64,000 nucleotides of DNA from Dudresnaya verticillata (lineage: Eukaryota), in contig OZ374565.1 of assembly GCA_977862235.1 (NCBI GenBank), positions 1,674,001 through 1,738,000 on the forward strand. The letters run 5' to 3'. A model generated the notes under the pieces. The model was not told the DNA's origin, did no database searches, and saw nothing but the letters and a program-made list of their open reading frames with translations. The number at the start of each line of letters is the position of its first letter. The first letter of the stretch is position 1. The translations under genes and the position numbers were made by a program. Shown piece after piece: positions 2,681-49,729 of the stretch.

Positions 2681-2682
2681 TC

Positions 2683-5600: not shown

Positions 5601-6023
5601 TTCTCCTAACACCCCCCTACAGAAGCACCTGTTGCCCTATCGCAAGGCGGTAACGCCCCACAACTCTTACAGGCGTCAAGTCCGCCTGCCGCTCAGACGG
5701 CAACGCCGATGATTGAGGATAATGTGACGGCGCCTCGCCGTAAGGTTTCCCGCTGTAAGAAAGCACCCCCGCGCGACTTCTTGTATGACAAAATCGTCGA
5801 CTATGACGCCGATACCCATACGTACCGTATTCGGTGGTTCCAATGCCCAGCGTCGCAAGACACCTGGGAGCCAAGGGATCATCTCCCTGGAAATTTAGTC
5901 AAACGATACCACTGTTCAAAGAAGATCCCCCTTCCAGGAGCAGCAGCCAACTCACTAGCTGAGTTAATAAGCAAAGACGTGGAGTGGAAAATCGTCCAAG
6001 GAGAACAGTGCCCACAGCAATGA
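2683..6023 (+). pseudogene. Gypsy-1 pol remnant: RT, RNase H, integrase, chromodomain
   Basis: SPVVLVKKPDG, CLDD (for YLDD), DTDACD…EKECLAVVWA, HPQTNGQTERFN, YRIRWFQCPASQDTWEP; many frameshifts and stops. Confidence 0.95.
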
Positions 6024-7188: not shown

Positions 7189-8951
7189 CTAGTCCGATAA
7201 CAGGTCAATAACTTCATCCTCACCCAACGGAGGATTCGGCTGGGGTGCCGAGTGAGACACGACGACACGTCGCTCCTCGCGCACGACGTGACGACTTCCC
7301 CCTCCGCGACGCAGACCACGACCACGCCGACCCCCCTCTAACTCGCCTAACGCACGGCGACTTCCCGTTGGCTGGTCCACCTCCATGGCATCAACGCCAT
7401 TAGTCTGGCTACCCTGTACGAGTGGGGCCACTTCGTCTTCTTCCTTAACGAAGAGCTCAGTCTTCACGACGACGTCATGTTGCGCGGCTACGTTAGACTC
7501 TCCAGCAGTGGGCGAAGGCCCAGTCGATATATCCGCAGGATTCACGCCCTCTTGGCCGATACCGCTTGGTTGAACAACCAGGGAGTCGCCCTGAGAACGG
7601 CTAGCATCGGGCTGACCCCGAGAATCATCTCGGGGAGAGATCGTGTTAAGCAACTCGCCAGTGGCAATGAAGCAAGCCAGACATTTGCGTCGTAGGAGCA
7701 GCCGGCGCCATCTGTGGCATAGCTGCAAGACCAGCTGTGCCACGCACGCGCAGCTGTAAGACCAGCTGCGCCACGTGTGCACTGCTGTGCGCACGCTGTC
7801 AGCCGGTGGCGCCGAAGCCCCGCTGAACTGTAAGGAAGTGCGCAGTGGCGAGCGCAGCTGTAAGACCAGCTGCGCCACGTGTGCACTGCTGTGCGCACGC
7901 TGTCAGCTGGTGGCGCCGAAGCCCCGCTAAACTGTAAGGAAGTGCGCAGTGGCGCCCACGTGTGCAAGCGTTCGCGTGTGACACTGAAACTCCCATGTAA
8001 TTTCTACGTTTATTGCTTTGTAGTGTACAGCACCGTCTAGTGTAAGCGGCGGTCGAACGCCCTGCTGTCCTGCGCGCTGTGCGCACGCACTCCGGCGCAG
8101 AGCCGTTGAGTGCGTGACACGCGCGCGCGCACTCCAGCGTCGAGCCGTTGAGTACGTGTGGACCGTTCCGCGTACGAGCGCCCCCGGGTTACCGTTACCC
8201 GTACGCGTCGACGCGTGTTGGGGCGCGCCGGCGCACCTCCCGGGTTGGTGCCGCCGCAGGCCCTGTAGTATATCTAGTAGTCGCCCCTCTGGGGTTCAGT
8301 AAACCAGAAAAGCCAGCCTACGCCGGGCTTGCCCTTTCTGCTTTGGGTTTCTTTCCCAGTCCTTCGCCCTACGGCTTCCCTCTTTCGCTAGCCGTCTAGG
8401 CTTTCCTTTTCCTTTCCCTACCGTCGTCTTCGTGCCGCCCCACGACGGGGACGCAGGGATCCGGCCGCTGCCGCCCGCGTACGGTACGCCCCGTGCGCGC
8501 TCAGGCTTCGACGCCGTTGATCCGCGACCGTCGACGGCGCGCGCGGCCGACACCACCGCTCTACCACCACAGCTACCACCCTTCGACGGGTCTGGGTGCG
8601 ACTGATCGACCAGCGCAGCTAGACGTCAGTTCGACCTGACGTCTATGCCACACCATCGTCGATGATGAGACGCCAGCTGTATTGATCGGCTTGGGAGCCG
8701 AGCGGGATATGGTCGCTCCATGACTGGCCGAAGGTGCCACAACTGACTCTTCACGAGGAATCACCGAGATGTCACTACCTGTCATAGCATGCAGATCCAA
8801 ACCCTCGACCTTACCCGATTGCTTCTTAATTCGTGGCGTCGCTGAATGGCCGAAGCACAAACGCGGTTTGATGTCAACATCATTGGGGTATCCCTTCAAG
8901 GGCGGAAACCTTGACAAGTGGGCACGGAGCTTCTCCAAACGCTCCACAGGA
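7189..8951 (-). pseudogene. 3' part of Gypsy-1 antisense extra ORF (split by solo LTR)
   Basis: ORF 8573-8956 (PVERLEKL…SRFPPLKGYP) and the host part of 7189-7878 (low complexity, ends VIDLLSD); joins the 24290-25755 segment in frame when the 15-kb insert is removed. Confidence 0.6.
7713..8652 (+). mobile_element. Solo LTR (family B) with internal ~104-bp tandem duplication
   Basis: Ends TGTGGCATAG…CTATGCCACA; TSD CCATC on both sides; duplicated unit at about 7750-7955. Confidence 0.92.
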
Positions 8952-9275
8952 AACACAGGTTCCCCGCGTTTCAGAATGTACTTTCAAAAACAGACTGAAA
9001 TAAAACCCTTCCAAATTACATGCGTTGGAAAGGGGAGCGTCCCCTGAGCACGCTGGTGCAAACAGAGTAGAGAACTAAGTAGTAGTTCGCGAGTTATGTC
9101 GGTTGGCGTGCTCACCCGGCAGTGAGTCTGAAATAATAAATTTTGGTGTAATTTCTGAGATTTTTAATTCGGATTTTGAGGTAACCTAGGCTACTTCCGT
9201 GGGCCCCTCACCGCGCAGTATTCGCTGCCCCAACAGTGCAGAACTACTCGTCAGTTCAATGCCGCTCTCCCGATG
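8952..9275 (+). repeat. Left TIR
   Basis: AACACAGGTTCCCCGCGTTTCAGAATGTACTTT… is the reverse complement of 23967-24289; roughly 90% identical in the core by eye. Confidence 0.9.
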
Positions 9276-9980
9276 AGATGCAGAGTACTGCAGCACTGCC
9301 ATGAATTCCCTTCCCGGACTCAATCCGGTGCAACTTCGGGCATTCGTCACCCGGCAACTCCACGCCACATTCTCTACTGCCATGCACTCTCTGCTCTTCC
9401 CTCGGCGTCAGGACTTGCTCTGCGCATTCGCACTCGCCCGCTACACTCTCCCTCCTCACCGACATATCGATTCGTTGTCCTTAGCGACAACCAAAAACCC
9501 CACCCAGGTATTGTAATCCCTGTTTCACCAACGTTACAGCATGTGCTGCACAGGGCGACGGCATTCATGTAGCGCTCTTCCCAGTGTATACCGTCCTCTC
9601 CGTCGACCTACTCCATGTGGATTGGACTGGGTTCTGGTACTGAATTTTGTCCCACATTGCCGGGAATTCGCCGTGGTAATAAGTTAGACCTCGTTCCCCG
9701 CTCCGAACACCTCGTACTTCACCCGTGCAGTTCCCTACAGATGTAGAGAGCTGCAGCTCGCCAGACACCCCAGTCAAAACCACAAACGCCCATTTCTAGT
9801 CATGCACTTGAACCAACTTCGAAAGTGCACTCAAAGCCGTCTCCCGTAGTAGTCCACACCACGATTCCTTACTTGCGCCCGTTCCCCTCTTCAAGCGCCT
9901 CAGCATGATAAACATACCAAACCGCTCCCGTACTCACTTTATCTGTAACTAAAACCCCTCAACTACCTTTACCCTAAACC

Positions 9981-10250
9981 TCAGTCCGCTTCAAACTCCG
10001 GGTCTTCTTCATCGACCTCCACCACCCACCACCCTAAGAAGACTAGTATTCCCTCCAGCACCACCTTCACCGCCTCCCCAACTGCGACATCATCCGCAAT
10101 CATGACCTGTGCCCGCTCCATCAAGTCCAGACGAAGCCATATGGCGTCACTGGTATGCCGCCTGGCTCGCGCCAGAGCTTCTTCTAGCTCGGCGCGCAGT
10201 CTCCGCACCTCCAGCACCAACGCTTCCGGTGCTTCATCGCAACTCTCCAT
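9981..10250 (-). CDS. Small coiled-coil protein with acidic tail (transposon cargo)
   Basis: ATG start; TATAAAA on minus strand at 10296-10302; EVRRLRAE…T.DA..LRLD motif shared with 14631-15017. Confidence 0.5.
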   Translation of the reverse strand: MESCDEAPEALVLEVRRLRAELEEALARARRHTSDAIWLRLDLMERAQVMIADDVAVGEAVKVVLEGILVFLGWWVVEVDEEDPEFEAD

Positions 10251-10432
10251 CTAAGTCGTCTCCACCAACCCTCAAACCGACACTGTACCACTCCCTTTTA
10301 TAGACGGAACCGGGCACCATTCTGAAGTTTAGTTGACCTTGTTTACACCACCTCTCCACATCTTTTCCCTATTGCGACACCGCTGCAACGTCGGGAATCG
10401 TTAGCATGCAAACCGTTCTTGCTGCGTAGTTG

Positions 10433-11059
10433 TTATTCTTTTAGCGGACGCGGCGAATCCCAATCGATGGGCGTACTTGGTGGAGGAACGTTCACAATGT
10501 TCATCCCTGCGATTTTGCGCTTCTCTTCATGGACTTTGCGAACTGCTGTCTCATACTGCCGACGTTCTTGTGCTGACAAGTTATCCATGTCTATAATCAG
10601 AGGGTTGGGAGCCATCTCACGCGGGTTCTGCATTCCTCTCTCCCTTGCATCCCTGAGGAAGTTACTCAATGCGAAATCTTGCCCGCGCCCTGCCACACTG
10701 TATTGACCTTCTTTCCCTATTACATCTGTCATGAAACTCTTGAAGACCGACCTGTCAAAGAGCTTGATGCCCAGAGTTTCTAGACCGATTATTTCCTTCC
10801 CTGCGCTGCTGAAGTATATCAATATACTCTCCAATCTAGCCACTCCGATCCGTTTCACGATGTCCTTCGCACACTCCCCGTCCTTGCACAAGTCGGCTAC
10901 AGTCAGGGACTCCATTTTCTGGCCCACTTCCACCATATCAAATGTTACGTCCCGCAGCTCTGTCAGACATTGACGGTGTGCAGACGGGTTTCTGTGCTCC
11001 ATTCTGTTCTGTTCGACAGTGCCATTCATGTGCCATGCACGATTCAAGTTCAATGGCAT
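10433..11059 (-). CDS. Hypothetical 208-aa protein (transposon cargo)
   Basis: Uninterrupted ORF with globular-like composition; divergent from the MTase gene; TATATA near 11233-11238. Confidence 0.5.
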   Translation of the reverse strand: MPLNLNRAWHMNGTVEQNRMEHRNPSAHRQCLTELRDVTFDMVEVGQKMESLTVADLCKDGECAKDIVKRIGVARLESILIYFSSAGKEIIGLETLGIKLFDRSVFKSFMTDVIGKEGQYSVAGRGQDFALSNFLRDARERGMQNPREMAPNPLIIDMDNLSAQERRQYETAVRKVHEEKRKIAGMNIVNVPPPSTPIDWDSPRPLKE

Positions 11060-11648
11060 GCAGTCCTGAGTAACTGAGCGTGAGCCACTTCCGAGACTCG
11101 GTGAGGGGTGCTTCCTGTTGCAGTAGTCATCTCAACATCGCGGTGGCGGGCTTCGGTCTTCATTATTGCTTCGTGCCGTAACTGTCGTGAGAGATGTCTT
11201 ACAGGATATATCGTTCCCGCTTCTCTCCACAATATATAAGGGAGAGAGACCGAACTAATCACAAGAACCTGGGATTCGGATTGCCCACGTATTACTTGGC
11301 ACGCGTATTAGCACACGTTGTTGTCCTACCCAAATTTGATTGACGAGAATCAGAATCTCCCGTTTACCACCGTTTCGGTTGCACTCAAACTGTACGGTCG
11401 TCCCCAGGGCAGTTACATAACGTAAAGACACGTATCTTTATTCCGTCGTTGAAAGATGGCACACAGGATCTCCATGCGATATATAGTGTGATGTCTGTCT
11501 CCAAGGCTGAGACTATAGCGGTAGTCTGTGCGGTCACCGCGGGAAAGCTCACTTGCCATCTTGCACACCCCTTCCGGGGTTTGACTAAGTTCTTGAATTC
11601 GCTCTACAATCCTTCACGACCATCTAGGTGATCACCTTCATATTCGGA

Positions 11649-14600
11649 ATGGGTGGTGGGAAGCGAAAGTCGAGAGGTGCTGGACCTAAACAGATTCCTC
11701 GATCGACACAGACCGCAAAAGCTCTATTCGCCGACTTAATAGATGGTTCCGTCAACACAAGAGCAGACCCCGTTTTCTGTATTCCATTGACGGCCATTCG
11801 TCCTATTGTGAGGTCTGGAGTAGAGCGTTTGAAGGCGCGCTTTGATGCGTCGCGCAAGGACCTCCACGATCCTCGAGCCAGTGCAATTGGATATGATGCT
11901 GGTTCGGACGCTCCCATTGTAATTGAAATATCTGGGTCCTTTCTATCTTTGGTAATTGAGCACTTCCAACAAACGTTTTAAGAAAGACGGAACGTCATAC
12001 TCTCAAAAAGAATCCATGGAAGTGTCAAACAATCGAGCGAAATGGTATGGAGTAGTGGACGGGATGCACAGACTTATAGCTATCACAGAACTCCGGAAGG
12101 AGGATTACGAGACGTGTAAATCTTTCTCATGGCCTGCTACTGTTCTAAGAGGGAGCCATGAATTGCAGTCACTTCGACAATTGGCTCGTCACCAGAATGA
12201 CAAGCACGATTCTTCATTCTACATCGAGACTACCTGCTTCGATACTCTTCGAGGCCTGAGAGAGGAGGCAGATCGTCTCACAGCGGGGAATGGTGGAAAA
12301 CGTCCGAATACCACGAGGATTGCTGAAGCCTATGAGGGATGCAACCATTTCAGGGACAATACTGTTAAACAGACTGCTCAGACTGTCCTTAGAATTTACC
12401 GCGCAGTGATTGACACAATCGGAGACATTATAAACGAGGAGAGGGATGATTTGGTGTCGATTTGATCTACAACTGTGGATCACAAGGACATCAATAAGAG
12501 TGTGGACTGTCGAGTGTACCGCAAGTCCATCAAAATAACATCTCTCAAGTCCGCAACAGTGTTCATGAACGCGTCGAAAGCACCGGATGGTGTACAAGCA
12601 CAGATTGCGACTTTATACCATTTGAGAGAATTGCACTGTTTACACAACTTCAAACCGCTGTCTTACCGGTACACCGTGGAACAGTTTCAGAAGGCCACCG
12701 CCGCTCTTCGCAAGGTTCGTAAGTTTGAAGTTCTCCGGGAAAGTCACGAGTGGCCAGAGTCCATTCAGGTGTTTCACTCTAACCTTCTCAATACACAGAA
12801 GATGGATGATGAGGTTGCGGAGAATATAGGAAATGACAAGGACATTGTGGCATCTATACTGGAATTGTACAGGGATGTATGTCCCCAGGAAGCTGCTGTT
12901 AAGGAGAAGAAGCATGCCAACTTGCTTAAAAGCATTGTCGGAAATAAGACAACACATAGTTCAGGACATTGTCCAGATAATGCCTCTCTGGAAGGGTCGC
13001 ACTTGCACTGTGATAGTGCCGAGCGCACTGATTGTGGAGATTCCACTCCTTCACCAAAACCTGGGGCACCTGTTGATAAACATAATTGCAAGTCTGTCGC
13101 CGCGGGATGTGTTGACAGTACTACTGGTTCCGGAAAAAACGCCTCAGAACCGCATGGAAACGAGCAAGAATCACCAAATGAGGATGGAAACTGTGGCACA
13201 ACACATGAAAACGAGAAAGGGACCGCCAATAGCCATGCTGGAGACACCGGGGAGGACACGAATGGCCATCTGGAAGGGAATAAAAAACATACACGATCGT
13301 CCGCGTCTACCATACAGTCTGAAAAGCTCGAAACATCAGGTATTGGAGACGTCGATGCACTGAATTCAATGAGGATCAGTTGCCACCACATGAGGTGGCA
13401 GACGTATAACCAGTCCGTTCGAAACGATTCGAGCCCACTGTTCGACCTCGTACTGACGGACCCTCCCTACGGAATACCGCCTAGTCGTTCGAATGCTGGT
13501 ATATCTTACGACAATTATATCAGCGATGGGGAGATTAAGCAATTCATCGAATTCTGTCGAAGGGTCATTAAACCTGGTCACTGGGTTTTCATCTTCTGCA
13601 GTTTCATTAACTTCGCAAAGTATCAACGTGCTCTGCTTGATGCTGGGCTCTACTGCCCGGAATATCCTTTCACCGTTTGCAAAGATACCAGGACATTGCA
13701 GGGACATCGTAATGACTACCCACAGAATGTTACGGAAATAGCCGCGTTTGGTCGCCGACGGGGACTGTGTGGGGAAAATTCAAGCCTGACCTCTCCAGTC
13801 CACTTCACTTCTTGGGAAGCAAAGATTGGCGAAAGTTCGCAACCTTCTCAAGTGTTCCAGTATCGAGACAAAAGCTGCTGAAGCCAGGGACCAAATCCCC
13901 TGTTGTGGTAGAGGGTAAGAACGTTTTGGCTCTAATGGAGGTCATGACAACTTTCTGTCCCGATGGTGGACGCGTTTTGGATGCCTACGGAGGTACCCTG
14001 ACCACTTGCATTGCAGGTTTGAGAACGGGGCGTCCGACTGTGGGCATCGAGCAGAACCCTGCAACATTCAGACTGGCATATGATCGTTTGAAGAAAATCG
14101 CAGTCGATGTGTGTAATGAAAAGCAGCGCTCTTCCACACTCACTGTCGTCCAACGGCAACACCGCGAAACGACTACCGATATTGATTCCGCTGAGAAGAG
14201 ACGGAAAGTAGTACGGAATGAGAAGAATGTGATAACGTCAACTGTAACAGACCGGCAACCCGCCAAATAGAAACGAACTAGTCCGGAAGGCTCAGAATCT
14301 GATCCTCTGCGGGGGGCTTCGAAGGTAGTCCTGCTTCAAGACGGAGATAAAGTCGGAACAGCATCTGTGCAATGAAATGCTGAGAGTTCCAAATTAACTG
14401 AGACTCTTCACGGAGTGTCGTTGTCGAAGGTTGCGAGGGAAGGATAACGTTTCGTTTCTCTTTCCGGATTCAGCGTATTACCTGGATGTGAGTCCCGGAA
14501 GTATCCGTATAGTTTCACATGTCAAGAGGAAGCGCCGGAGACGCTGAGTGGGCTGGTGGGGTTCTTTGCATGGGATTTGCACAAGTTGGAATCGTCGTAG
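11649..14600 (+). pseudogene. ParB-like + beta-class N6A/N4C DNA methyltransferase + C-terminal En/Spm-Tnp1-like domain (disrupted)
   Basis: Basic N-terminus MGGGKRKSR; ParB-type WYGVVDGMHRL (about 12043-12075); motif IV FDLVLTDPPYG (DPPY 13459-13470) precedes motif I RVLDAYGGTLTT (about 13974) and motif II VGIEQN; frameshifts near 11970 and 13770; in-frame stops at 12463, 14268 and two more before 14600. Confidence 0.85.
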
Positions 14601-14630
14601 TACGATATTACGGTCAGAGTAACCTCCGAG

Positions 14631-15017
14631 ATGCATATTGGGTATAATCGCCAAGCACGAGCTTTTCAGAATCCTCCGTCTACAGCATTTATTCCAGATC
14701 GAGTGCAGCTTTGCTGCAATGGCCTTGCAATATCTGGAACGTGGACAACGATATACCCCATGAACTCCTCACATGTACATCGCGACCGAATTACGAGTCT
14801 TGACCCCACGACAACGTTGCGTGAAGTTCAGACTCTTCGGGCTGAGGTTCTTGAGATGAGGTCGTTCACTGATGACGCACGACTGCGCCTGGATGCCATA
14901 TATAGCGATGTTTTCAACCGCGTGGAAAAGGTGGTTGTACAGGTGATGAGGTTTGCCAGGCAGGCTCAGGACAGACTACGTTCGGTTGAAGAAAGGTTGG
15001 GAATTGAACACAGATAA
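14631..15017 (+). CDS. Small coiled-coil protein (possible true start ATG 14760)
   Basis: LREVQTLRAEV…FTDDARLRLDA; helical heptads. Confidence 0.5.
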   Translation: MHIGYNRQARAFQNPPSTAFIPDRVQLCCNGLAISGTWTTIYPMNSSHVHRDRITSLDPTTTLREVQTLRAEVLEMRSFTDDARLRLDAIYSDVFNRVEKVVVQVMRFARQAQDRLRSVEERLGIEHR

Positions 15018-15134
15018 GAGGTGGACATCGAGTTGGATTCAGATCCGGAATCACATTTGCCTCCCCTCCATTTTGATCGCCATTGCATTGCACACCGACG
15101 CTCCTAGTGAGAAGGGGCTAGAAGAGAAATCAGA

Positions 15135-15419
15135 ATGACGCGTAAAACACTCCAGGAGCTGAGAGGTGAGATAGACAACCTCCGTGTGCAGGTTCGACAA
15201 CTGCAAGCGAGAGAAAACTATCTCGATGAGCAACTTCGGGCCGTGGCACAAGCCGTGAGGGAGATTGTGCATGGTGAAGGCAGACGAGCTGTGAACGCGC
15301 TGAGGAGCATTAGGGGGAGAGTCAGTGCCCTATACAGGATGATTACCAGACTTTATGGTCCAGCACAGAACGAACAGAACCCCGGTTCGGATGGAGGGGA
15401 GGATACCGGAAATGTGTAG
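15135..15419 (+). CDS. Small coiled-coil protein
   Basis: LQELRGEIDNLRVQVRQLQARE heptads; intact ATG to stop. Confidence 0.5.
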   Translation: MTRKTLQELRGEIDNLRVQVRQLQARENYLDEQLRAVAQAVREIVHGEGRRAVNALRSIRGRVSALYRMITRLYGPAQNEQNPGSDGGEDTGNV

Positions 15420-15799
15420 CCATCGGCTATCTTTAGAGTGGTCCTGTGTCTCGTCAGAAACTGAAATGTAAACTGCGTTGTGTTGCATCTTTCCATGTCG
15501 TCTCACGCTGGAACATCATGACACGCGCCTGTATCCGTGCTTGACGGTAATGCCGCGGAGGACGACTCCCTGCGCTGTCCGCTGTGTGCAGGAAATTTGG
15601 CCATGCGAGAGCGTTTTTGCGTCACATGGGCGCCGGCTCTAAACCCGGCGCGGGGTCAGCAACGGTAGCCGCTGCGTGAATAGGAAGAACTGGCGGCAGT
15701 GTGGATGGTTCGCGGCATGGTGCGCGAGGTGCACCCAAAAATCTGGCGACGAGCGCCGGCAGGCGGCGGGCTGTGTACGACCGAGTCCCGGGAGCCCCG

Positions 15800-16136
15800 G
15801 ATAGGTTTTCACAGCACGACCTTGCAGAAACCTAAAAAACTAATATCAATATTGACGAATAGGTTTTCACGGCTCGCGAGATCGAATATCTGTGTAATAG
15901 GTATTTCTACACTGAGTCTGGAAATCCCTATATAGGTATTTTCCAAATCACCTTCACAAAACCTATCGTAATAGGTTTTGCTGTCGGCGCGTCAGAAATA
16001 CCTTTATAGCTATTTGTAAGCACGCAACCAGAATACCTATTAGAAAGGTTTTTGCGTCGCCGGGTCGAAAAAACCTAAAACCTAATATCGATATTGCCGG
16101 ATAGGTCCTGACGGCTCGCATCCACAGAAACCTATC
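15800..16136. repeat. Palindromic array of ATAGGT(T/A)TT / AA(A/T)ACCTA motifs (MITE or foldback-like)
   Basis: Ends GATAGGTTT…AAACCTATC; central palindrome AAAACCTATCGTAATAGGTTTT near 15958-15979; about ten motif copies; CCG flanks both ends. Confidence 0.65.
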
Positions 16137-16687
16137 CCGCCATCTTGGAACCTCACCCTCCCATCGCTGCAGCCACGCGGCCTCGCGGTCGGTATGACAC
16201 ACATCAGCAGAGCTGCTGCTGAATCCCTGCCCAAAACGTCCCCCTGCGCATGAGACCCACACACCCCAGCTGCCTGTACCGCGCTGAGCATGCTGCAGTT
16301 GCAGCGCCGCGTCGACGTCCGCCAGTTGCGGTCGAGGTCTGTCGCGTCTGCAACCGCGCTGAACGCGCGTGATTGCGCACAGGAGCGCAATACGCTCCCA
16401 CCGTTGCCGTGCACCACTCCGTTTGTACGGGGTGTCGCCGGTGCTGCATGCCCTCGCTCCGGACTTGCTCAGGAACTTGAACTCGTCCTCACCCGCCTTC
16501 TCCTCATCATACAGATCGCTGTTCGTTAACAACCTCAATATGGCAGGTAGTCGCAGGTTGTCACCTTTCTGCAGCACGACCTTCACCGTGTTTACAGCTT
16601 CCGACATGATGCAAGTAATCCCGCGACTGCACTAGTGGAGCGGAGGTCACGGACAGCTACATTGGGTCTATCAAAAAAGCTCTCCGA

Positions 16688-17271
16688 ATGACGTCCTGGT
16701 GGCTGTTCGCGAGGTTGCATCTTGAAAACACGAGGGCTAGTCGATACCCTTCTGTCTGGTATTGCATGGGCATAGGCTCCGTCGTGAATAACACCAACTC
16801 TCGCCATCAGTTTTCGTTCGCTCTTCTGATTAAGGAGTTGCTTGGCAGCCCCTCGCGTTGCACGATCACCGACCCGGTTATGAATGAGGATGACATCAAG
16901 ATGGCACGCGAGGCAGGCTTCGAGGTTGTAGCGGCGGACGCTTTCACAGTGCGTGTCCCCCTTCTGGGGCCTGTACCGTGCTCTTCATGCCGCACTGTGG
17001 GATAGCTCTAAACAAGAAGACACTGAGGCGATGTTCAGAGTTTTCAGACAAGGGAATTGTTCTCTTTGGCAACATCCTGTCTGGGCACGCAGCTTTCCCG
17101 CGAGGTTCCTATGACTTCTCGTTGCATGGTTTAATTGATAGGCTTATAGGTTCAAAGGCACTACATTAGAGGGAAAGTCTAGAGTCGAAGCGGTCAACGC
17201 GTGAGTTGGCTTTCAACGATCTTGCTCTGACCACAATCGAGGACCCAGGCAACGATTTGAACCACGATTAG
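16688..17271 (+). pseudogene. SRR1/BER1-like domain fragment
   Basis: CMGIGS…SRHQF…TDPVM..DD…LFMPHC…IVLFGN…AFND match the SRR1 domain pattern; one frameshift (about 16980) and one in-frame stop (17167). Confidence 0.7.
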
Positions 17272-17294
17272 CACGCTTGGCTACTGCATATGGC

Positions 17295-18035
17295 TCCATT
17301 TGTTGGATATTTGATGCTTGGTCTGTTCCGGGGCCGTGCCGCCTACAGTGTTCCGCAGGTCGACGCTCTGCTCAGGCTTCCACAAGTTGAGACACTCAGC
17401 GTTCGCTTCCGGTACGGAGATTTGAATCTGCTCTAGGGTTAACTTATCAAGGCTCACATAATTTTCCGGCTATACCAAACCAGAATACCAACCCGGTGTT
17501 GGGCATCGCGGCACGGAACACCCTGTTCGACCAGCCACTCCGCGAGCTCCGTAGCCATTAGAGCCGGGTAGCTCTCTGCTTCATACATGTGCTCCTTATT
17601 CACACGCATCGATGCAACCATTGGCCCGTAAACCGACAGCACCAGCTTCACAGTGTCAATAGCGTCGAAAATGGGCTCCTCATCCTCTTGTATGTCGCGA
17701 TTGTATTCCAGAGGAATTCCCTTCATAATCGTAAGCAAAGTCGCAAGGTCTCCTTAAACCCGACCAGTTTTTCACGTGTCAGCTCACACATGTATGGGTT
17801 CTTCTTTTGCAGCATAAGGAAGCTTGCCGTGCAAAATGCGTCGCCAAGTTCAACCCATCCAGCTTTTTGGCTCATCAAGAATATGATATCCTCACTGAGG
17901 CGGGACAGATGCATCATTACAATACTGCAAGTCGAAACCAGCTATGTTGCGAAGTCGCGGTCACTAACGGTGTCCAGGTAATTGTTGCATACGCCGCCAA
18001 AGCCCAGTTCCTTCGCGAAAAAATCGCGGAGGAAG
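17295..18035 (-). pseudogene. argH: Argininosuccinate lyase, 3' half, degenerate
   Basis: AKELGF…DTVSDRDF; MHLSRLSEDII; decayed signature ASFLMLQKKNP; MKGIPLEYNRDIQED; ATELAEWLVEQGVP; GGTAPEQ; frameshifted and lacking the N-terminal half. Confidence 0.92.
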
Positions 18036-18500
18036 CTATAAACACCGCTAGAGGTGTCCTGGACCCCGCAGCGTTTTTCATGACTCAAGCGTATATTGCA
18101 TGAATAGCTATCGCGTTCTCCAGCAAATATGAAACCGTCCTTGACAAATTGAGAATAAAAGTCAAGGGCCATTTCATAGTTGTAAAGCGAGGCAGATCTG
18201 CCTGCTATACTTGAGTGCACATATTGCGCAAGGGAGTGCGAAAAACGGGAGGCAGTCTACTTCAATCTGCAGCTTCATGCATAACGAAAGCGGATATGCA
18301 GGGCATCCAAATCGAACGTAGTCTTGGCAGTGTGGTAAGTTATGCCACATCAAGGACAATCAGCGTTACTTTATGTGAGCGTTACTTTATGCCACATCAA
18401 GGGCATTCAGAGTAGGTATTGCGTGATTAGCATTCTGAGGTTCATACCAATTCCCTTCTCCTTCAATCTAGGAGCGTTAAGACTTTAATGGACTATCGTG

Positions 18501-21500
18501 CTACGATTTCTGTAGGGAGTCTCGTATCTTCTTCTTAACGGCTTGGGGCAGACATCTATTAGACAGCTTCTCAAACTCAACGAGGACAGACGCGGCATCA
18601 ACATCGTCAGTCCATGCCTTCTTGGCTCTGGCGTAGACAGAAGGGTGATATTTACCGTCCCACGCGTCCTGTCCTGAACCAACCTCATACCACCTGACTG
18701 AAAGGGTGCAAACGACACACGCGCTGTCCTTCTTCCAGCCCTGTACCTGTGCGATCCAGAAAGGCACATTATTGTCCTTAATGTTCAGGACCACGAAACG
18801 GTTGACACCATACGTCAAGTCAGCACGCTGAGTCTCGTGCTCAGCGTCATCCTGCTCCTCGGCGTCGCTATCTGCATCCTCCCCCGGTTCACCATCGCTT
18901 TCGGCAACTTTCTCCGACTTTCTATATACACCCTTCTTCTCGAATACCTTTGTCAGGTCCCAATGCAGAGGCTCCTCGCGATCGCGGAAGAACTCATCGA
19001 GCAACTTTTTAAACTCCTTTAGCTTCGCGGAGTCATTGATTCGCAGCTCCTCTGAGAGTAAGCGCTTGCTTACTTCTTCTTTATCTGGAGGGGAGATTAT
19101 CGCAGTGGCAGGTGTCTTTTCCAACTCGGGTGGTAATAGAAAGAAATCTTGTTGAGGTCCCTTTCTTTTCAACGCCTTCCACGAATCCTTGCAACCCACT
19201 CGTACCTCACACTTCGTCTTATAATAAGCTGCAATAGAGCCGGAGTCCAGTTCCGATCTGGAAAATTTGAATTAGCGAAAGTGGGAGAAAGGCTCAACCC
19301 CCCAATACACTTCTCCTGTTTGCAGAGTCCGGAACAGTTCGCGATGTGTCGCATGCGCGTCACTACAGGCGCGGGTGTGTACGATTGGCGTAGTTTCTCC
19401 ATCAAGTCCTGCATATTCACCGCGTCGTGGACTCGAAGCCTCCTGGAGGTGCAACTAAAAGTTTGGTCGATGTCGGCATGAGTTTGCCCGATTGGCAAGA
19501 AAGACATATGCACTTCAGTGAATACCCCCACGACACGAGCGACTCCAAGTACGTGAGTAGGAACTTGTTCTAGTTTTTACGTGTACAGTTGTCTCCTTGC
19601 AGAAAGAGAGTGCCCCGGAGCTCCCCTCTCTCATATTTGGTTGCTAACACGCGTTGCAACGCCTCAGCAATATGGTTTGCGCCTGATTCGAACTCGGCAG
19701 TCATTGTCAATAACGACAATCGATCTGCAGCGCTGTGGTCCAGTACTACTATTAACTTTGCCGCCAGCGCATGACCCGTTGTGGCTTTCGATCGAACATT
19801 GAAGTGCGGCAGACCATACGCCGATTGATCTGCACCATCGATAATCATTGAGCAATACCTTGTCGGCGAGAGTTTTGCCATGTCGCATTTCTTCTGGTAC
19901 TAGATTCTTTCCTGCCTTACCATCTCTATATGCCGCCTGCGGCGCTCTCTCAATCCCTCTGTTGCAGTCTGGTCTGCACCCCCCGAAGTCATGCGGGCAA
20001 GTTGATCCCTCACAGTCTCGCACTCGGCACAATTCGCGAATCGGTGGGTTTTGCGCACTTTGATCCTTGCGCAATGTGCAGTCCAAACAGTGCAAAAGTA
20101 GCTCTGAGACGGCAGTGTCTTTCCTCGGTACAATTTGGAAAGCTCACGCACAAAAACCTCGTACACCGCCTGCTTTTGAAAGAAGGGTAGATGAAGCTCG
20201 TCTCTGTCCGGTATTGCGTCAGATGTAGCTTCCGCTAACCTCTCTAAGAAGCTCCCAATGAGTTCAAGAGAGCTGTGGAAGCATCTCGCGAGCTCTTTCC
20301 GGGGCCGGCCCGCCTCCGGGCCTGTCTTATTCCTTTCGTTGACGACTGCAAGACCTTCGAAAATCCAAATGCCCGTTCCCCAAACGTGTAACACACCGGC
20401 CTGGCGCTGAAGAAGTACATATTAGAGTTGGGTTCCAATAGGCTTCGTAGATATGCCTACCGAGCTGCTCCGTTCATTACAATCGTACGCCTCACTTCCG
20501 CCCGAATACACGTGCTTTCAATTGTCGCAAAACATTGTTTTGACTGACAACATAACCATGACGAAATTTTTGTGTTGTAAACGTCTTCGAGCAGTTTCCG
20601 GCGCTTGCTGGCCATCAAAGGAGCACAAAGGGTGCCTTACGGCCTGCTGTGATAGTTGTAGCTTCGCTCCTGCCGGGTGTGCCCTTGTGTTATTTCCACA
20701 TCCCCCTCTTACGGTCCAGTGCTAACAGCAGCAGTTGCCTCCCCAGGAGGGCTGGGCACCGCGCTTGCCTCAACGGGTCGTTCTATTTCGGCATCCTCCC
20801 CATCCTCAGAACTTTCTTTATCGTCCCTGTCACCCTCCGGTAAGTATGCCTCGTCACCACATTGTTCTGATTCCGAAGAATCCTTCGTACTCGGTCTGGG
20901 TATACCAGCTGTATTTGAAACCTCTGGTTGAGGTCATCATGGCGGTCTGGTTCGATGTGTGTATTGCAGAGGCGATGCGGTTAATACTGGCGAAGGAGCT
21001 GTTTGCGGGGGAATCGACAGTCAGCCTCTTTCCTCGTCGGCGACTCTTTGGCGGTGTTTTCATAGAAGGTTCCTCCCCGAGGAGACGGGTCGCGGGAAGA
21101 GGTGTATCTGCTGCAGTACTGGAGCGGGCGGCAGAATGTTTGTTGCGCATCTGCGCCACATCCCAAACATGCATTACTACCTCAAGACCGCGAAGAGTAG
21201 CAGGTGGTTCTTCGACGCCCTTGTAGGTATAACGGTAAGGCTTCGAAGCAAACTCTTCTTCTATCTTCACCTCGTAAATGACCGCCAATGTTTGCCCTTT
21301 TTCCTCAACCTCGTTCCGATAATGCCCATGTAATCTAGTGCAATAGCACCCTGTGCTGTCCGCTGCACTAGGCTTTGACGGGGCGAACGGCTCAGTGGTG
21401 CCGACTATCAGCCTTTTGTCGAGCAACTGAACACGCCTTCGAGTATTGGAATTAGCAGTTTCCTTACCATCATTACCTCCACGCACTGCAGCTGAAGATG

Positions 21501-21507
21501 TCGACAT
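18501..21507 (-). pseudogene. Sola-like DDD transposase (disrupted) with N-terminal Tnp1-like and C-terminal beta-barrel-like domains
   Basis: LP…K..VY…S.SYF..VW…F..CxxC; IIDGADQ (about 19825-19845); LFLQGDNCTRKN*NK (about 19590); FLPIGQTHADIDQTFS (about 19455-19500); C-terminal PFWIAQV…VRWYE; several frameshifts. Confidence 0.78.
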
Positions 21508-22331
21508 TTCTGGTCCAGCTTGCAGACCGTTGTCGTCTCCACGTCGCGGAGATCTCCTTCCAGCTGATGATACAACTGATAATTACTGTTGAGGAGGCGA
21601 AGACGGTGGCGGCGCTGGTGGCACGTCTAGGAGATATCGGAAAGTGGCATGGAACCACCTGATTTACCAGTCTGATTCTAGGAAATACTACCGGCGGCTA
21701 TAAGGGGTCATTTATTTATCTGCCTCGACGGAGAAAGCCCTAATCACAACAACCTAGAAGTGCTGCTCCGTCAAATGTGGCTTCGAAGAAAGGAAAATAA
21801 GATGAAGGCTCCAGTTTTCGTTTTCCATACTCGGTTCAACATATTCAAAACCGATTTGCACTGCATTGACTCTACAGTTGCTTCTTGCATACCATGACAC
21901 TTTCGTTTGCTTTGTACGCCATGGTGTAGAATCCTTGCATCTTTTACGAGCGGCACGGCAGGTTCGACGACTGGGCATAAATGTAGCGGAACAGCAAGAA
22001 AACAGACCTGTTTAGCCTCAATTGAGGTACGCTTAAGCGTTCTCCAATGGTAAGCCTAACCATCCACAAGTTGGATTCGAAAGTACAGCATCCATGGCAG
22101 GGTTGGGTGGCGGCCTACATGCCTTAGTTCGATTTGTGACGTTTGCCAGTATGCTGGCTGCTAGCACAACTGGAACACAGGTGCTTCCCAAGCCGTAAAA
22201 ACAAGAGTAACAGACTCGACCTCAAAGGGATGACTACATACAATGCACAATCGGTGGGATATTCGTACGCTCAGGGGTTAGCACTATGAACGCCTAGGAG
22301 ATGAATACTGCAAGAGGCAGCGCTACGCTTC

Positions 22332-22830
22332 TGGTTAAATGATGATATCATCTCTGGTCACGCCATTAGTAGCGAGGATACACTGCACCAGGCATAGAAT
22401 TCCAGGTTCACGTTAGTAGCGAATGGCGTTTTGAAATCTGGCATTACACACCTCCGATACCCTACAATGAAGGCTCAGTTACTCTGAGTTCGGCTTTGAC
22501 CATCACAGTTTATTGAGGGGCTGTCCCGGTATACACTTCGAACGTGTTGTATGAGGCGTCTTTCCAGTTTGGCATGGCCGTCGACCATCTCAAACACCTT
22601 CTTGAAGCAGAGTATATGAATGGGATTGTCTCTATGTTGCCTTATTCGAGACCTTTTTCTTGTCATTCCACAGATGCTGATAGTCGTTCCAGGAACGACA
22701 TATTCACGGGTAGAAACAGCAGATGACGGGCAGCATGCCCAATGTTCTTTTAGGGCCGCACTGGACATGTGCCTGGTGGCTAAGGGCTAGAGCAAGCAAA
22801 AAATGTTGTTAGGATAGATCCTCTGCACAC
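22332..22830 (+). pseudogene. Possible Ulp1/C48-like protease remnant
   Basis: WLNDDII at 22332, P…HWTC at 22759 and RIDPL downstream, in different frames; no clear catalytic Cys motif. Confidence 0.25.
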
Positions 22831-23709
22831 TCGATGACATGGGGAACAAACAGCTTGCTCACGTCGGCACAGTGTGGCAGACAGCGAAGCACTGTTCATT
22901 CGTTTCGTTTGGAAAGGGTGGATACCGGACCTGAGGGTGGACAACGGTGCCCAGCGCCTAGTCCGGATCGCTGCGCACGACTGGGCTCCGAACTCGCGCT
23001 CATGTCGAGGTTTTGGCGGCAGCTAAGTGGCCTGACAGTAAGAGCGTGAACGAAGAAGGATGCAGAGCTCGGCACGAAGGAGCCGCTAGTCGGTACAGGA
23101 CCTGGAGAGTCAAAAGTTCTCTATACCAGGCTGCACAATATTTACAACCGAGAAGACGAATATGGGAGAGCAGCTAACTCCGTAGACGGGAACAGTAAGC
23201 AAGGTAGCAAAGCTGTCTTCCAGGCCGTCTATCCTGAAGCGCATAACAAGGACCGAAAACGCGAAAGTCTTTACATGCAATAGGTAGAAACGTTGGTGTT
23301 GCAACTGCTATGCACAAAATGCGTTTTGCAACCGTTTGAGTACTCTCATCGCCATTGCAACTCTTCGCGTTGCCCCCCAGTCAAACCAAAATTATGGTCA
23401 CTGAATATTAGAGTAAAAGCTGGGGGCAAAATGCTCAGCATGCATGAAACACTAGAAGCGAACATTTTAGGTACGGTGTTATCGTAGAACGAACACAACG
23501 TCATTACCAGCATCGTTGAAGACGCAACAAAGTTCATAAAAAAAGAGAAACTATACTTGCAAGATATCAAGATGGACTGCCACGAGCTGGAATTCGGGCG
23601 GATACTCGGAACATCTGAGAGACCGAGAGTGATGTTGTACTTTATTGAATCTTTAACGTGCGCGGTTGCGCGGGCGACTAGGGCCCATTTGCAGGCAAAC
23701 GCCCTACCA

Positions 23710-23911
23710 ACCAGCTATCTACTGTATGGTACACTAGAGGGCTTACACCCGTAATCTGGAGGCAGTCCAGCCGGCTCCATGAGAAGAATGGGCAAACAAC
23801 CCCGGTGGGGAAAAATCCTTGAGAAAAATGTAGAGCCATGGGACCTGGCGGGAGTCGAACTCGGTTTCCCGGAATCAACGGCGCAGCGGTGAACCACTGC
23901 ACTACCCGTCC
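23710..23911 (-). mobile_element. tRNA-derived SINE-like sequence
   Basis: A box TAGTGCAGTGG (23894-23904), B box GAGTTCGACTCC (23851-23862), tRNA-sized head 23839-23911 with imperfect acceptor stem; 3' boundary approximate. Confidence 0.55.
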
Positions 23912-23966
23912 GCCTCCGCGGGCGGGTTAGTAGTACCAAAACCACACATGCCTTTCAACTAGACCA

Positions 23967-24289
23967 CATCGTGAGCTGCATTGGACCGACGAGTAGTTCT
24001 GCAATGCTGCGGCTGCCTGTACTGGGTGATGAGGGGCCCATGGAAGTAGCCTAGGTTACCTCAAAATCCGAATTAAAAAATCTCAGAAATTACACCAAAA
24101 TTAATTATTTCAGACCCCGCTGCCGGGTTAGCACGCCAACCAACATAACGCGCGTACTACTACTTAGTTCTCTACTCCTTTTGCACCAGCACGCTCAGGG
24201 GACGCTCCCCTTTCCAACGCATATACTTTGGAAGCGTTTTATTTCAGTCTGTTTTCAAAGTACATTCTGTAACGCAGGAAACCATTGTT
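23967..24289 (-). repeat. Right TIR
   Basis: Reverse complement AACAATGGTTTCCTGCGTTACAGAATGTACTTT… matches 8952-9275. Confidence 0.9.
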
Positions 24290-25755
24290 AGGACCCGGAG
24301 TCCTCATCCAATGGGACTCATAGTCCACCATAGCCTCCTCGACCCAGCCGGCGAGGCTATTAACAGTAAGATTCCGTAGCTCCCAATGCACTGCGAGGCG
24401 GATAGCCAAACCACGTTTGTTGAAGACGCCACACAAAACGTGATTGGCCTTACCATGGCCAGTTGCCGCGGGCGCGTACGGACCCTGAGATTGACCATCG
24501 ACAGTATAGTCGAATGACGGAACGTCTCCTGGAGTCTCCGGACGGGGGTCTTGCCAACTGGCACTGACCCACCCTTGAGTAACACCGGTGATACGGTTCC
24601 CCTCGTCCAAGACCAGGGGTCTCTCCTCTGTCGGCCCTGGCTGAATAAAGAAGTCCGGCAACACCGGATGTCAATCATCGGGATCAAATTCCATCCAATC
24701 CCCCTGTCATACACAGGATTGAAAGGACCGTTGTTCTCGGGGAGGTGGCGGTTCCTCTTGGAGATGCGGCTCCATCTGATACGGTCTATGAAGACCAACA
24801 AGGCTTCTTCGGCATTAGCCGACAATTTCGCAATACCCATCTCCTTGATGGCCGTAAGAATCGGCTGGTTAATGAAGAATAACAGACCATGTTGAGCCTC
24901 ATAGACGTGAGTCTGAGCGACTAAGACGATCCACTCGTCTCGAAAAAGACTCCAAAGGACACTCTCATCCATGGCTCGCGCTATCATGTTCAACCCGAAG
25001 TAAGCCACAATAGTGGGAGTTCCCCCGGGAATAGAGTAGGACAATTCGTACGACGCATGGTCGTCAGGGATCTGAGGGTACTTCGCCCTATAATATTCTG
25101 GTTTGATGGAAACCACTTCTTGACAGTGACACGGGATGAGACACCCCGTCTTGTGGCGCTGACGCCGCTCGAAAATCGAATACGCTAACGGCTTGGCCGT
25201 TTGAGGATTGTCAAGTGCGTACTTGAGATTCGTGGGCTCATCCCAGCGAATGATGTGGGCTAACGTATACGGGCAATTATCCCGGCCCTTCCGAATCAGC
25301 GGACGAGAGTGGTTGACCATACGCAAGTCCCACCCTCCACGAGAGTGGATTTCACACAACATCTCTAGTTGATAGTTCAGCTTTTCTGCCACGCTGTTCG
25401 TGAAGAACACCTCATGCCTGAATCGCACATATGCGAGGTCCAACAGATAGCATGAAGCCTCTCCCTGAAGGACGGGAACGAAACCGTTTGTGCCGGTCAG
25501 CATCTCAACCCGCGCACGGCTCACGCTGTTACACATACGACTTTGCGCCACGCGTACACCGCGTCGTTGGATATCTTTCCGACCAGCCCCAGCACGGGCT
25601 TTGATGTGCGCCAGGTTGGTACGCACCAACCAGTCGCGACTGTGCTTGATGGCAACCGGCACGCCCGAAGAGTCCACTTCGTGGCCGGGGACGCTCGCGC
25701 TAGATCCAGCCTCCCCATACGCAAAGCCGGAGTTATTCATCACAGGGATGAGCAC
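24290..25755 (-). pseudogene. 5' part of Gypsy-1 antisense extra ORF
   Basis: 483-aa ORF frameshifting near 24660 into the 24239-24664 frame; lies between pol and the 3' LTR on the opposite strand. Confidence 0.7.
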
Positions 25756-26507
25756 ACAACAACGTCGCGAGACGTGGCACGTTTCCTGGATCGAGAGTGG
25801 GGTATGCCCACAGGTATTCTTCTAAGGCACGATTGCCTTGTCTTCAATATACGCGTCGGCTCCAGAACCGAACCCTAAGGTGGGGAGCGCGATCTGAAAT
25901 GTCTCCTAAGGCACGGAGGCCTTCCTTGAGATACGTCGGCTCCAAACCCGATCGTCAGAAAGGCAAGCGCGACCTGAATCGCTCGAGCGATGCTTCAGGG
26001 CGCAAGACGCCAGTCGTCTGGGGACGCAAACGTGCTGTGTCACGCGACGAAGGTGAAACGCGCCCGCGCACTGAATGGAACGGCAGGGAGAAGCGCCAAA
26101 CACGACGGGAGTCGCTGCGGCGTGGCGAGGTTGAAGGGGCGTTGGAGGGGCGATGACGGAAGAGGGCAGGCTATCAGGTGTGTGGAGGTTGCGGTCGAGT
26201 CGGTGGATGAACGAGGGAGCGGAAGGGCACAGTCGGCTCTGCGCCGAGGTTGAAATAGACGCCCGCCCCGTCTGGCGTGTCGAGTTGTCGATACCAGTCG
26301 TGGTGCCAAAGGCGAGCCACCGGCGACGGCTCACGCTGGGCTGATCTGGCGCATGCGCCGACGACCGTTGGCGGATGCTTCTAGAAATTCGGAAAACCGC
26401 GCTTGGCTGGGCCAATCTTTTCGGCGAGATTTCATATCTCAACGGTCGGAACCGTTGGAAACAGCATTCTGTACTGAGCGGGGTCGCTCAGTTTAAGAAG
26501 GGGGCCG

Positions 26508-27129
26508 TGTGGAATAATGAGCACCCGAGCGCTGTAAGCCCACACGTGTACACAAGACGCCTGTAAGGTGTGAGGTGCCCGAGGGTGCGATGGTTGAGAT
26601 GGCTGATTCCCATTGGTCGATTAATCATTGTCACCCATATTTTTGGCATGGAGCGCCAAACAGCAGCGCGCCTTATCTCGTAGTGGTACTATAACTCATT
26701 CCTATCATTGGATTGTAATCCACCTTTAGTGTGTAGTATTAGGTAACTGTCAGTATTATAACTCTAACTTAGAGTGGGTAGCATTTCCGGCTTCCCGCCG
26801 TATTTATTGGGCCCCTGAGTAGCAGGGGCCCCGCATTAAACCGCCAGCGGTGTGTGCTTTGGGCTGTACCCATTTTCTGGTCTTCCTACGGTGCCACCGT
26901 TGTTCCCTTGTCTTGGGCATCTACAAGCCCTATCGTGTACGAAAATTGCTCTACGCTGTAGGGTCGCCTTCCCTTCTATTTGTTTCTGGGTATCACACCC
27001 ACTACAAGTCTCTACCACACCCCTTTTCCCCTTTTCCTTTGAGCTACCGCCCACCGTGAGTGTATGTACCCAGGACAGTTTTCGCGCCGTTTTGTCGCCG
27101 TCTACCTGGCCGAGGGCCATTCTACTACA
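26508..27129 (+). repeat. Gypsy-1 3' LTR
   Basis: TG…CA ends (TGTGGAAT…ATTCTACTACA); PPT AAGAAGGGGG at 26495-26504; colinear similarity to 55632-56298. Confidence 0.85.
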
Positions 27130-27332
27130 TATGCTTTCACCTGACACAGTTATAGACGTTCCTGGTTTCCCGAAGACGGGTCGTACTATCGAGGGGAGCT
27201 CTCTAACACAGTGAAGGGCTTGCAAAAGTGGGCCCTCTGCCCACGTGTATGCGCTGAAATAGCGTTACCTATGGGACACTGGAAGGGACAAGACTGGTAG
27301 TCTTCGCTTGGACCAAGTGTTACCCTGTAGGT

Positions 27333-28019
27333 TGTAGTGTAGTAAAAGACACACCTGTAAGGAGAGCTGATCAGGCAATCCCAATAAGGAGTGATCTCAT
27401 ACAGCACCGGGGTAGTAGAGCTTAGTTCGTAGACCGAAGGGAGCACCTCGAGCGGCAACACCTGTAAGGAGTCAAGGAACGCAAAAGACAAGGGGGACGG
27501 TACAGTGCCAGGGCAGCTACACCAGGACGGAGGTAAGAGGAATCCGTGTACGGGGCTGGCGAGGGGAAACCGTAAAGGAGTATGAGGGTAAGGCTTAGGG
27601 TAAGTCACTTTGCCCAGGGTTGCGTACCCGTTTACCTGTAGGACTCGCGGTGGCCACCCATTAATATACTGGGAGATACACCCCGCGGTCCTGTCCGTGT
27701 GGGCCAGACCCCAATGGGTCTGGTCCACCAGGTGGGTCCGGCCCTACTCGTCCCGGTCACCATTGCGGACATGCTCAGTATCCTCATTGGCCGACTGACA
27801 CTACGTCCTGTACAGCATCATTACAATTACCTAATTACAAATAAATCAACTACTTGGCTCCTATTGGTGGTACGCGCAGACTCCAGCAGGGCATAGAGTG
27901 CTACTGTGTCGCTGCACTCCCGCTTCAGCTTTTGGCGCGCGCTTAGCAGAGCGCGGGCTGTCGACGGTCAGGCGTCGGCTCGCCCGCCGTCGGCACTCCG
28001 AAACGGCCACTTCACCACA
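27333..28019 (-). repeat. Gypsy-2 3' LTR
   Basis: Highly similar to 38352-38912 plus 44145-44268; TG…CA ends. Confidence 0.95.
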
Positions 28020-28647
28020 GACCCCCTCCTTAAATGGCGACACGTCCTCGTGCGCCACAGCACGTCTTCTAAAAATCCACTCAGGTGTATCCAGCAACGG
28101 ACCGAACATCGTCAGTGTACTGCACCTCAGGCAAGTCGACAAACGTGCAAGTCCAACCCGGTGTGCCACTAGCGATGGCGGGCGGTAACACTGGCCGCGC
28201 ACGGGGCTCCTTCGAACCGACACGGCGTACACCTTCGGTGAGGGCGGCTCCTGCGCCGGAGGAAGAAGAGAGAGAAGGCGGCGGGCCCGCGGACACCATA
28301 GTGGGGGTTGTGGCGGCAACGGGCGCAACGCCGACGCTATCAGCACGTGCGGGTAGCCCGCGGGTGCCGCGACGGCGCGATGGTGGCGAGGCTCCACAGA
28401 CGCCCACTCCGCTTCCGGATCGGCAAATGGGGTCGGGAGCACAACAGCCCGGTCTTTCGAAAGGCAACACCGCAATGGGGTCCCTTGGCTATCGTCGAGC
28501 AACTCCGCATGGGCGATACGAGGCGTATGCGCGGGGTCTCCAGGTTGGATAGGTTGGAAGTGGAGTAACCTCAATCGCACTCCACATAGGTGTAGGCGGC
28601 ATACCCACGGGCATGTGTAATCGACGGGTTACACCGATGAGGGAACT

Positions 28648-49654: not shown

Positions 49655-49729
49655 CGGTCCCTGATGGGATTTGATCCCTCGACTTCTGCGTTGAACTCGA
49701 GACCGCTGTACCAATCAACCAATGATACG
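49655..49729 (-). other. tRNA-like (Pol III A/B box) sequence in the Copia-2 3' UTR
   Basis: A box TGGTTGATTGG (49711-49721), B box GGATCAAATCCC (49666-49677), TTTTT just downstream. Confidence 0.45.

Follow-up and report, generated by a model that had tools for sequence, protein, structure and literature searches.

The transposon described here is a decayed insert of 15,338 bp (8952..24289) in a 64,000-nucleotide (64-kb) stretch of Dudresnaya verticillata DNA (assembly GCA_977862235.1, contig OZ374565.1, positions 1,674,001 to 1,738,000); this whole stretch is called the window, and all coordinates refer to it. The insert lies inside a Gypsy retroelement and carries a broken transposase gene of the DUF7869 family, a broken gene whose product is predicted to join a ParB/Noc fold to a beta-class amino-methyltransferase, an array of eight tandem palindromes and a further copy of the methyltransferase's C-terminal domain, which lies immediately upstream of the transposase core (Table 1). 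An initial annotation, made from the letters of the window, had described a multi-gene cut-and-paste element, and this is borne out by the terminal inverted repeats (TIRs), a 4-bp target-site duplication, the transposase gene with its putative DDD triad and the ParB-amino-methyltransferase gene. It had also called the copy decayed and, indeed, the transposase and methyltransferase genes are both broken.

Element boundaries and insertion site

The TIRs (8952-9267 versus 24289-23973) align with 88.4% identity over 318 columns (E = 2e-110), and a pairwise alignment stretches them to about 9275/23966. Either TIR end starts with AACA, and AGGA abuts both. The TIR alignment and the 4-bp duplication thus agree with the initial annotation, which had seen inverted repeats of about 320 bp around 15.3 kb with AGGA flanks. 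Its claim that excision rejoins a host antisense open reading frame (ORF) also held: on the minus strand, one frame of the three stays open for 125 codons both before and after the insertion, and these two halves, being in register, join into a frame of 251 amino acids (aa). Since register alone has a 1-in-3 chance, the 4-bp duplication is the weightier evidence. The host is a chromodomain Gypsy (Gypsy-1) with pol at about 2400-6020. Beyond the insert, near 26510, a purine tract and a following TG open a long terminal repeat (LTR)-like stretch (26519-27129), which is 67% like the 5' LTR (55699-56298) of another Gypsy; the pol genes of that element and of Gypsy-1 are 73% alike. The proposed interruption between Gypsy-1 pol and its 3' LTR is supported by this stretch, but no uninterrupted empty-site relative of the insertion was found in the window. 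A second copy of the element was not found in the window either.

Table 1. Features of the transposon and its target-site duplications, in order of position
Feature	Position	Strand	Remarks
Left target-site duplication	8948..8951		AGGA
Left TIR, about 320 bp	8952..9275	+	First letters AACA; 286 matches, 35 substitutions versus right TIR
Decayed ORF pieces (putative)	9259..10250	-	Coiled-coil-like and Cys-containing stretches; no Pfam match
Open 208-aa ORF	10433..11059	-	Head to head with methyltransferase gene
ParB-methyltransferase gene, broken	11649..14600	+	Two frameshifts and several stops; convergent with transposase
ParB/Noc-fold domain	11721-12267	+	Predicted fold; DGMHR at 12058
Helical region	12268-12906	+	Followed by linker
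Beta-class amino-methyltransferase domain	13375-14102	+	DPPY 13459-13470; motif I near 13980
C-terminal domain of methyltransferase gene	14310-14588	+	
Two short coiled-coil-like ORFs	14601..15419	+	138 and 102 codons, stop to stop; weak sub-cut-off Pfam matches only
Array of eight tandem 35-bp palindromes	15801..16135		ATAGGTWTT-N17-AAWACCTAT; 1.2 kb downstream of methyltransferase gene
SRR1 domain, captured host fragment, broken	16619..17166	+	E = 7e-14 (Pfam)
Argininosuccinate lyase, captured host fragment, broken	17457..18049	-	Model positions 200-393 of 455
DUF7869 transposase, broken	18501..20933	-	PF25273 pieces and intact relatives; CxxC 20031, DGADQ 19839, DNC 19593, third Asp motif 19489-19466, then conserved C-terminal domain
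ORF with second copy of methyltransferase C-terminal domain	20854..21582	-	Domain at 21435-21148; profile and pairwise comparison
Right TIR	23966..24289	-	
Right target-site duplication	24290..24293		AGGA

The ParB-methyltransferase gene

The convergent gene had been annotated as a ParB-methyltransferase, an assignment sustained by a predicted ParB fold, two PF01555 pieces and the DPPY motif. The PF01555 pieces scored 24.5 and 22.1 bits, each just below the curated cut-off of 26.7; intact homologues clear the cut-off, and PF01555 was present in 38 of 39 relatives at E <= 0.01. Motif IV precedes motif I and has the canonical form (D/N/S)PP(Y/F/W), as in the beta class.

The ParB part is invisible to Pfam and was recognised by structure prediction. 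When the first 398 aa of relative P0106 were modelled (93-sequence alignment; predicted local distance difference test, pLDDT, 93.8), the top 11 Foldseek rows were all ParB or Noc (best E = 3e-3), and VIA-align gave Z 10.7 for PadC (root mean square deviation, rmsd, 4.3; 122 aligned) and Z 8.6 for KorB (rmsd 6.8; 175 aligned). The N-terminal part is therefore predicted to be a ParB/Noc fold plus a helical DNA-binding region; the GxxR nucleotide motif of the window copy reads DGMHR.

The full-length model was poor (pLDDT 51) and was used for the methylase domain alone. Its structural matches were headed by beta-class N6A enzymes (M1.HpyAVI, E = 7e-19; M.BceJIV and CcrM were also among the nearest). 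DPPY is the motif of bacterial N6A enzymes and SPPY that of most N4C enzymes (PMC8885841). Because of the DPPY motif and these best matches, N6-methyladenine (6mA) is favoured over N4-methylcytosine (4mC) as the mark, which the initial annotation had left as either of the two. That the protein acts as proposed below but writes 4mC is extremely improbable: PF01555 spans both marks, and the structural matches include rotifer N4CMT and M.PvuII, but these two rank below the N6A enzymes, and the motif is not SPPY. The bdelloid N4CMT is likewise a beta-class amino-methylase of prokaryotic origin that acts on eukaryotic repeats, but it serves in host defence and has SPPY and a chromodomain (PMC8885841), whereas the window gene is transposon-borne and has DPPY and a ParB fold.

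Among the Atlas clusters, phage ParB_N + N6_N4_Mtase proteins come nearest (score 0.92), and phrog_67 matched with E = 2e-29, yet the methylase is only 24-31% identical to annotated phage enzymes; thus, a phage origin of the gene is likely, and likely old. Phage ParB-N6/N4 methyltransferases also have a ParB N-terminus and a beta-class methylase (PMC4738411), but the window gene is twice as long, with an extra helical region and the C-terminal domain. It differs as well from the eukaryotic clades described there, which are Emiliania FHA fusions and chlorophyte ParB-HTH Dam enzymes; Chondrus is never mentioned in that text and supplement. If the ParB protein and its array served to retain or segregate excised or extrachromosomal copies, or to aid packaging like the phage ParB-terminase loci treated in PMC4738411, a ParB/Noc fold and phage relatives would be at home here. 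However, Pfam scans of the element revealed neither ParA nor a terminase, capsid or replication gene, and long TIRs with a 4-bp duplication indicate ordinary cut-and-paste, which makes such a role very unlikely.

The palindrome array

The array of eight palindromes had escaped the initial annotation. At up to 3 mismatches, the palindrome has 8 matches in the 64 kb, all within the array, whereas shuffles averaged 0.04 and never exceeded 1. The spacer is constant at 17 bp but variable in sequence, and the half-sites are kept. Because half-sites and spacer length are kept while the spacer sequence is free, the array suits protein-binding sites, and we regard it, from its sequence, as a candidate set of parS-like sites for a dimeric binder, beside a ParB-fold gene. 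We also considered a miniature inverted-repeat transposable element (MITE). The array ends in short inverted repeats, and no duplication is visible by eye; the constant 17-bp spacer of free sequence makes a MITE the less good fit, so binding sites are preferred. The exact palindrome also occurs in 36 viral loci, with one unit each, no array and no related gene, which was taken as chance.

Relatives of the ParB-methyltransferase

Ten relatives of the gene were found, five of which have 887-1010 aa, 36-41% identity and DPPY (5/5). Since intact DPPY relatives of this length exist, the gene has been maintained under selection. A profile search gave 241 clusters at E <= 1e-30 (50%-identity representatives), a large unnamed family that the initial annotation had not noted. 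Among the new matches listed that have at least 780 aa, 43 of 44 have the order ParB-like, helical, methylase, and the C-terminal domain was seen in 11 of the 44 with the first profile. In a FastTree phylogeny (52 sequences, 709 columns, midpoint root, shorter fragments excluded) the window copy nests, with a support of 0.992, in an eight-member clade with DPPY in all eight; the C-terminal domain was scored in six of these, the window's own lying outside the piece used. Supported clades of P0058-P0130 share non-canonical forms of motif IV (EPPx, RPPx, DPFQ, SLPx, QxP) and may be pseudo-enzymes or have new chemistry. Metagenomes searched with the methylase alignment yielded a single hit among 208 candidates, a 24% match confined to the methylase domain, and viral contigs searched for the locus yielded none (0/66 and 0/38 candidates).

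The transposase and its pairing with the methyltransferase

Pfam matched DUF7869 (PF25273) on the transposase pieces with E = 5e-18 and 4e-6, and this was the sole Pfam family on these pieces and on 4 intact relatives. Eleven intact relatives of 808-982 aa (42-57% identity), all unnamed, span the product of 18501-20933. Three Asp motifs are conserved between the window transposase and these relatives; judged from this conservation, they would form a DDD catalytic triad, and the DDD transposase of the initial annotation is upheld by the DUF7869 pieces and these motifs. The motifs presumably resemble those of Sola1. No solved structure related to the transposase alignment was found, and a literature search on DUF7869/PF25273 returned no paper. 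Prokaryote genomes searched with the transposase alignment gave one of 36 candidates, a DUF7869-like gene on a 4.7-kb bin contig that has neither array nor methylase. This open frame of 880 codons (L002:1310-3952; 30% identity to P0039), from a Bacteroidia bin, probably comes from contaminating eukaryotic DNA or else represents a rare prokaryotic member.

The closest transposase relative (808 aa, 57% identity) has three cluster members, on contigs of 10330, 9690 and 12365 nucleotides (nt). Members of methyltransferase cluster 7 likewise lie on contigs of precisely these three sizes: an intact one of 986 aa on the first and C-terminal or split pieces on the other two. With 15 transposase and 63 methylase contigs, at least three equal sizes arose in 12 of 200000 jittered trials. 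Since members of both clusters are on contigs of three identical sizes, transposase and methyltransferase are likely paired elsewhere too, with 57% and about 41% identity, respectively, to the window genes. The co-occurrence with intact ORFs raised by the initial annotation is therefore likely, with the intact 986-aa methyltransferase as an example, although in one family and on indirect evidence.

A further link, also missed by the initial annotation, is the C-terminal domain of the methyltransferase. This domain of 96 aa recurs at 21435-21148 (minus strand) with E = 4e-20 (26 of 89 positions identical, or 29%; z 11), and it had no Pfam, PDB-sequence or Atlas match. Since the transposase frame has no Met ahead of its conserved part, the ORF that carries the second copy is likely the frameshifted N-terminus of the transposase.

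Relation to known systems

The initial annotation did not recognise the combination as a named family. The kind, however, has been published: Petroll et al. report PAG elements, giant red-seaweed transposons in which a PF01555 methylase is accompanied by a ParB protein and arrays, and already propose self-modification. Their Plavaka elements are 17-19 kb long; PAG2, an adenine methylase, joins PF01555 to SET, PAG3 joins ParB to a putative 2-oxoglutarate (2OG) oxygenase and has inverted-repeat arrays beside it, and PAG genes also occur on Mutator, Zisupton and Fanzor elements (bioRxiv 10.1101/2025.02.11.637652). The present element is alike in being giant and of the TIR type, and it too combines a PF01555 methylase with a ParB-like protein and an adjoining inverted-repeat array. 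In addition, 7BNR, the best HHpred match of PAG3, is also among the ParB matches of the P0106 model, and PAG3 may belong to the same ParB family as the window gene. In contrast, methylase-SET and ParB-2OG are separate proteins there, whereas ParB and methylase are one protein here. SET (PF00856) was found in none of the 39 relatives scanned and in none of the window ORFs scanned with Pfam. The domain after ParB is here a methylase fold, with no 2OG match in Pfam; the 2OG call of PAG3 itself has an HHpred E of 0.016 and is invisible to InterPro. The carriers differ as well: PAG carriers are Plavaka/EnSpm, Mutator and Zisupton, and the main text of that preprint never names Sola, whereas the carrier here has a DUF7869 transposase. 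As far as seen, then, what is new is the single ParB-methylase fusion, the DUF7869 Sola-like carrier, the shared domain and the exact candidate site. A literature search found no paper on this combination, but supplementary Table S6 of Petroll et al. may already contain such elements.

Sola elements have a DDD transposase, a 4-bp duplication and TIRs of 11-1124 bp, and some exceed 15 kb (PMC10741241); the present element has the 4-bp AGGA duplication (in one copy), TIRs of about 320 bp and three Asp motifs. However, the Sola2 motifs DFxEN, SDG..QYKN and ATSHGK differ by eye from DGADQS, DNCxRENKN and GHTHxDID found here, and the Sola2 duplication is AT-rich, which AGGA is not (PMC3627910). Judged from descriptions and the Sola2 alignment, we therefore speak of a Sola-like element and do not call it Sola. 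Sola2 elements capture Fanzor genes, and viruses have methyltransferase-bearing Mariners (PMC3627910); a literature search for methyltransferase cargo in Sola found none. Large multi-ORF En/Spm families are described in Chondrus (PMC6431247).

Other content of the element

Broken fragments of SRR1 and argininosuccinate lyase sit between the array and the transposase, with a short local duplication near 18340-18400 by the lyase fragment. The initial annotation was right that captured host genes lie inside the element, and we take these fragments to be passive captures outside the system. A protein-like minus-strand frame that starts at 16458-16631, head to head with the SRR1 fragment, had no family match and is possibly a third captured host gene. 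The open 208-aa ORF had no relative among 136 candidates.

Given that the element does capture host DNA and that this copy is broken throughout, the methyltransferase gene might itself be a once-captured passenger (Pack-type capture) with no role for the element. But the gene is full length here and the host genes are fragmentary; moreover, elsewhere it likely lies together with the closest transposase, and this, like the array and the shared domain, argues against a passenger, to which we give a very slim chance.

Neighbouring repeats

A direct repeat (1287-1869 / 8128-8665; 71% alike, without a clear coding frame) was rejected as an empty site of the insertion, since it stops short of the junction; it may represent the 3' region from a Gypsy relative, at the place expected for Gypsy-1 gag. 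In the Gypsy 3' region there are tandem duplications of 104 bp and 31 bp (7717-7954) and two long antisense frames (24304-25821 and 7189-8983), an extra antisense gene without Pfam match. Farther along, a DDE_Tnp_4 transposase piece on the plus strand is convergent with a DUF6818 gene on the minus strand (45417-47354), likely a decayed PIF/Harbinger element. Copia-type elements (RVT_2) lie at 38913-44140 and 49338-55523, each with LTR-like repeat pairs about 95% alike, and the first appears nested within an LTR of a minus-strand Gypsy (about 27323-44268). The SRR1, Gypsy, Copia and Harbinger-like genes mark the DNA as eukaryotic, and the published parallels suggest a red seaweed. Scans for Rfam families and tRNAs gave no match, and the signal of a promoter scan was no better than chance.

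Proposed mechanism and its alternatives

In our judgement there is a little better than an even chance that a dimer of the fusion protein binds the array, perhaps slides, and methylates adenines of its own element, thereby aiding expression or mobility. A dimer would bind the two half-sites 17 bp apart, and loading might be gated by nucleotide and followed by sliding, by analogy with bacterial ParB. The methyltransferase would write 6mA on its own element, which could thereby escape silencing and be kept transcribed or mobile. The domain common to the methyltransferase tail and the transposase N-terminus might link the two proteins or their DNA targets. A transposon-encoded protein that acts on short motifs of its own family, and so changes its methylation state, is reportedly also found in the VANDAL elements of eudicots; but their VANC protein is reported to cause loss of 5-methylcytosine (5mC), whereas the system here would add a mark and would do so with a prokaryote-type clamp.

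Several observations weigh against this reading. The array is known from this copy only and borders captured host DNA, so that it could be a nested repeat. No ParB row reached E <= 0.001 in Foldseek. The co-occurrence of transposase and methyltransferase was deduced from equal contig sizes within one family (three near-identical transposases), and the other four of the seven transposase contigs of at least 6 kb match no methyltransferase contig (63 contigs, 20 clusters). The shared domain was found in none of 15 transposase relatives. Canonical motif IV is present in 24 of 84 non-redundant methylase domains, not present in 58 and gapped in 2, and GxxR is kept in 46 of 93 ParB domains; thus, methylation and nucleotide gating are not family-wide, although some motif-less relatives may simply be decayed copies.

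The same counts would be expected if the protein were a DNA-binding clamp or scaffold on the array, with the methyltransferase fold as a binding or base-flipping module and methylation optional; such a clamp might block silencing, bridge the ends or recruit the transposase in cis. The motif-I pattern is retained in 37 of the 58 domains without canonical motif IV, altered motifs such as EPPx, DPFQ and SLPx are common to whole supported clades, and the ParB and helical parts are kept in nearly all of the long relatives. In the window's own clade, however, DPPY is kept in every member despite a divergence of roughly 55-60%. We hold this main rival, a clamp for which methylation is optional, to be unlikely, though well worth keeping in mind.

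It is also conceivable, but rather improbable, that gene and array are a selfish, hitch-hiking cassette that moves among unrelated transposons, of which the DUF7869 element would be one carrier. PAG genes are found on Plavaka, Mutator, Zisupton and Fanzor elements and are called highly mobile (bioRxiv 10.1101/2025.02.11.637652), the methyltransferases are diverse, and more than half of the long transposase contigs are without a matching methyltransferase contig. On the other hand, the gene is likely paired with the same transposase clade elsewhere, at the identities given above, and the transposase-proximal ORF has its own copy of the C-terminal domain (29% identity); each of these points to long co-residence.

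Self-methylation of the element remains the reading that we prefer. In its strongest form, which is doubtful but deserves some weight, the whole bacterial ParB-parS device would have been adopted by a eukaryotic transposon lineage, giving a self-writing epigenetic system on a Sola-like carrier: a CTP-gated clamp would load at the array, slide outward and write 6mA along its own element only, as a mark of both self and activity. The shared domain would then dock the transposase in cis, and the catalytically altered relatives would have retained the clamp and lost the mark.

The locus lends itself to testing: there is a single fusion protein with intact natural relatives (P0003-P0007, P0023, P0029), the candidate site is exact, and natural relatives that lack the motif can serve as controls. 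If self-methylation is correct, a site-loaded, spreading DNA methylase would be a possible tool, and transposon-written 6mA and a ParB-type sliding clamp would join the components of eukaryotic chromatin. The 6mA detected in such genomes may then stem from transposons rather than from the host.

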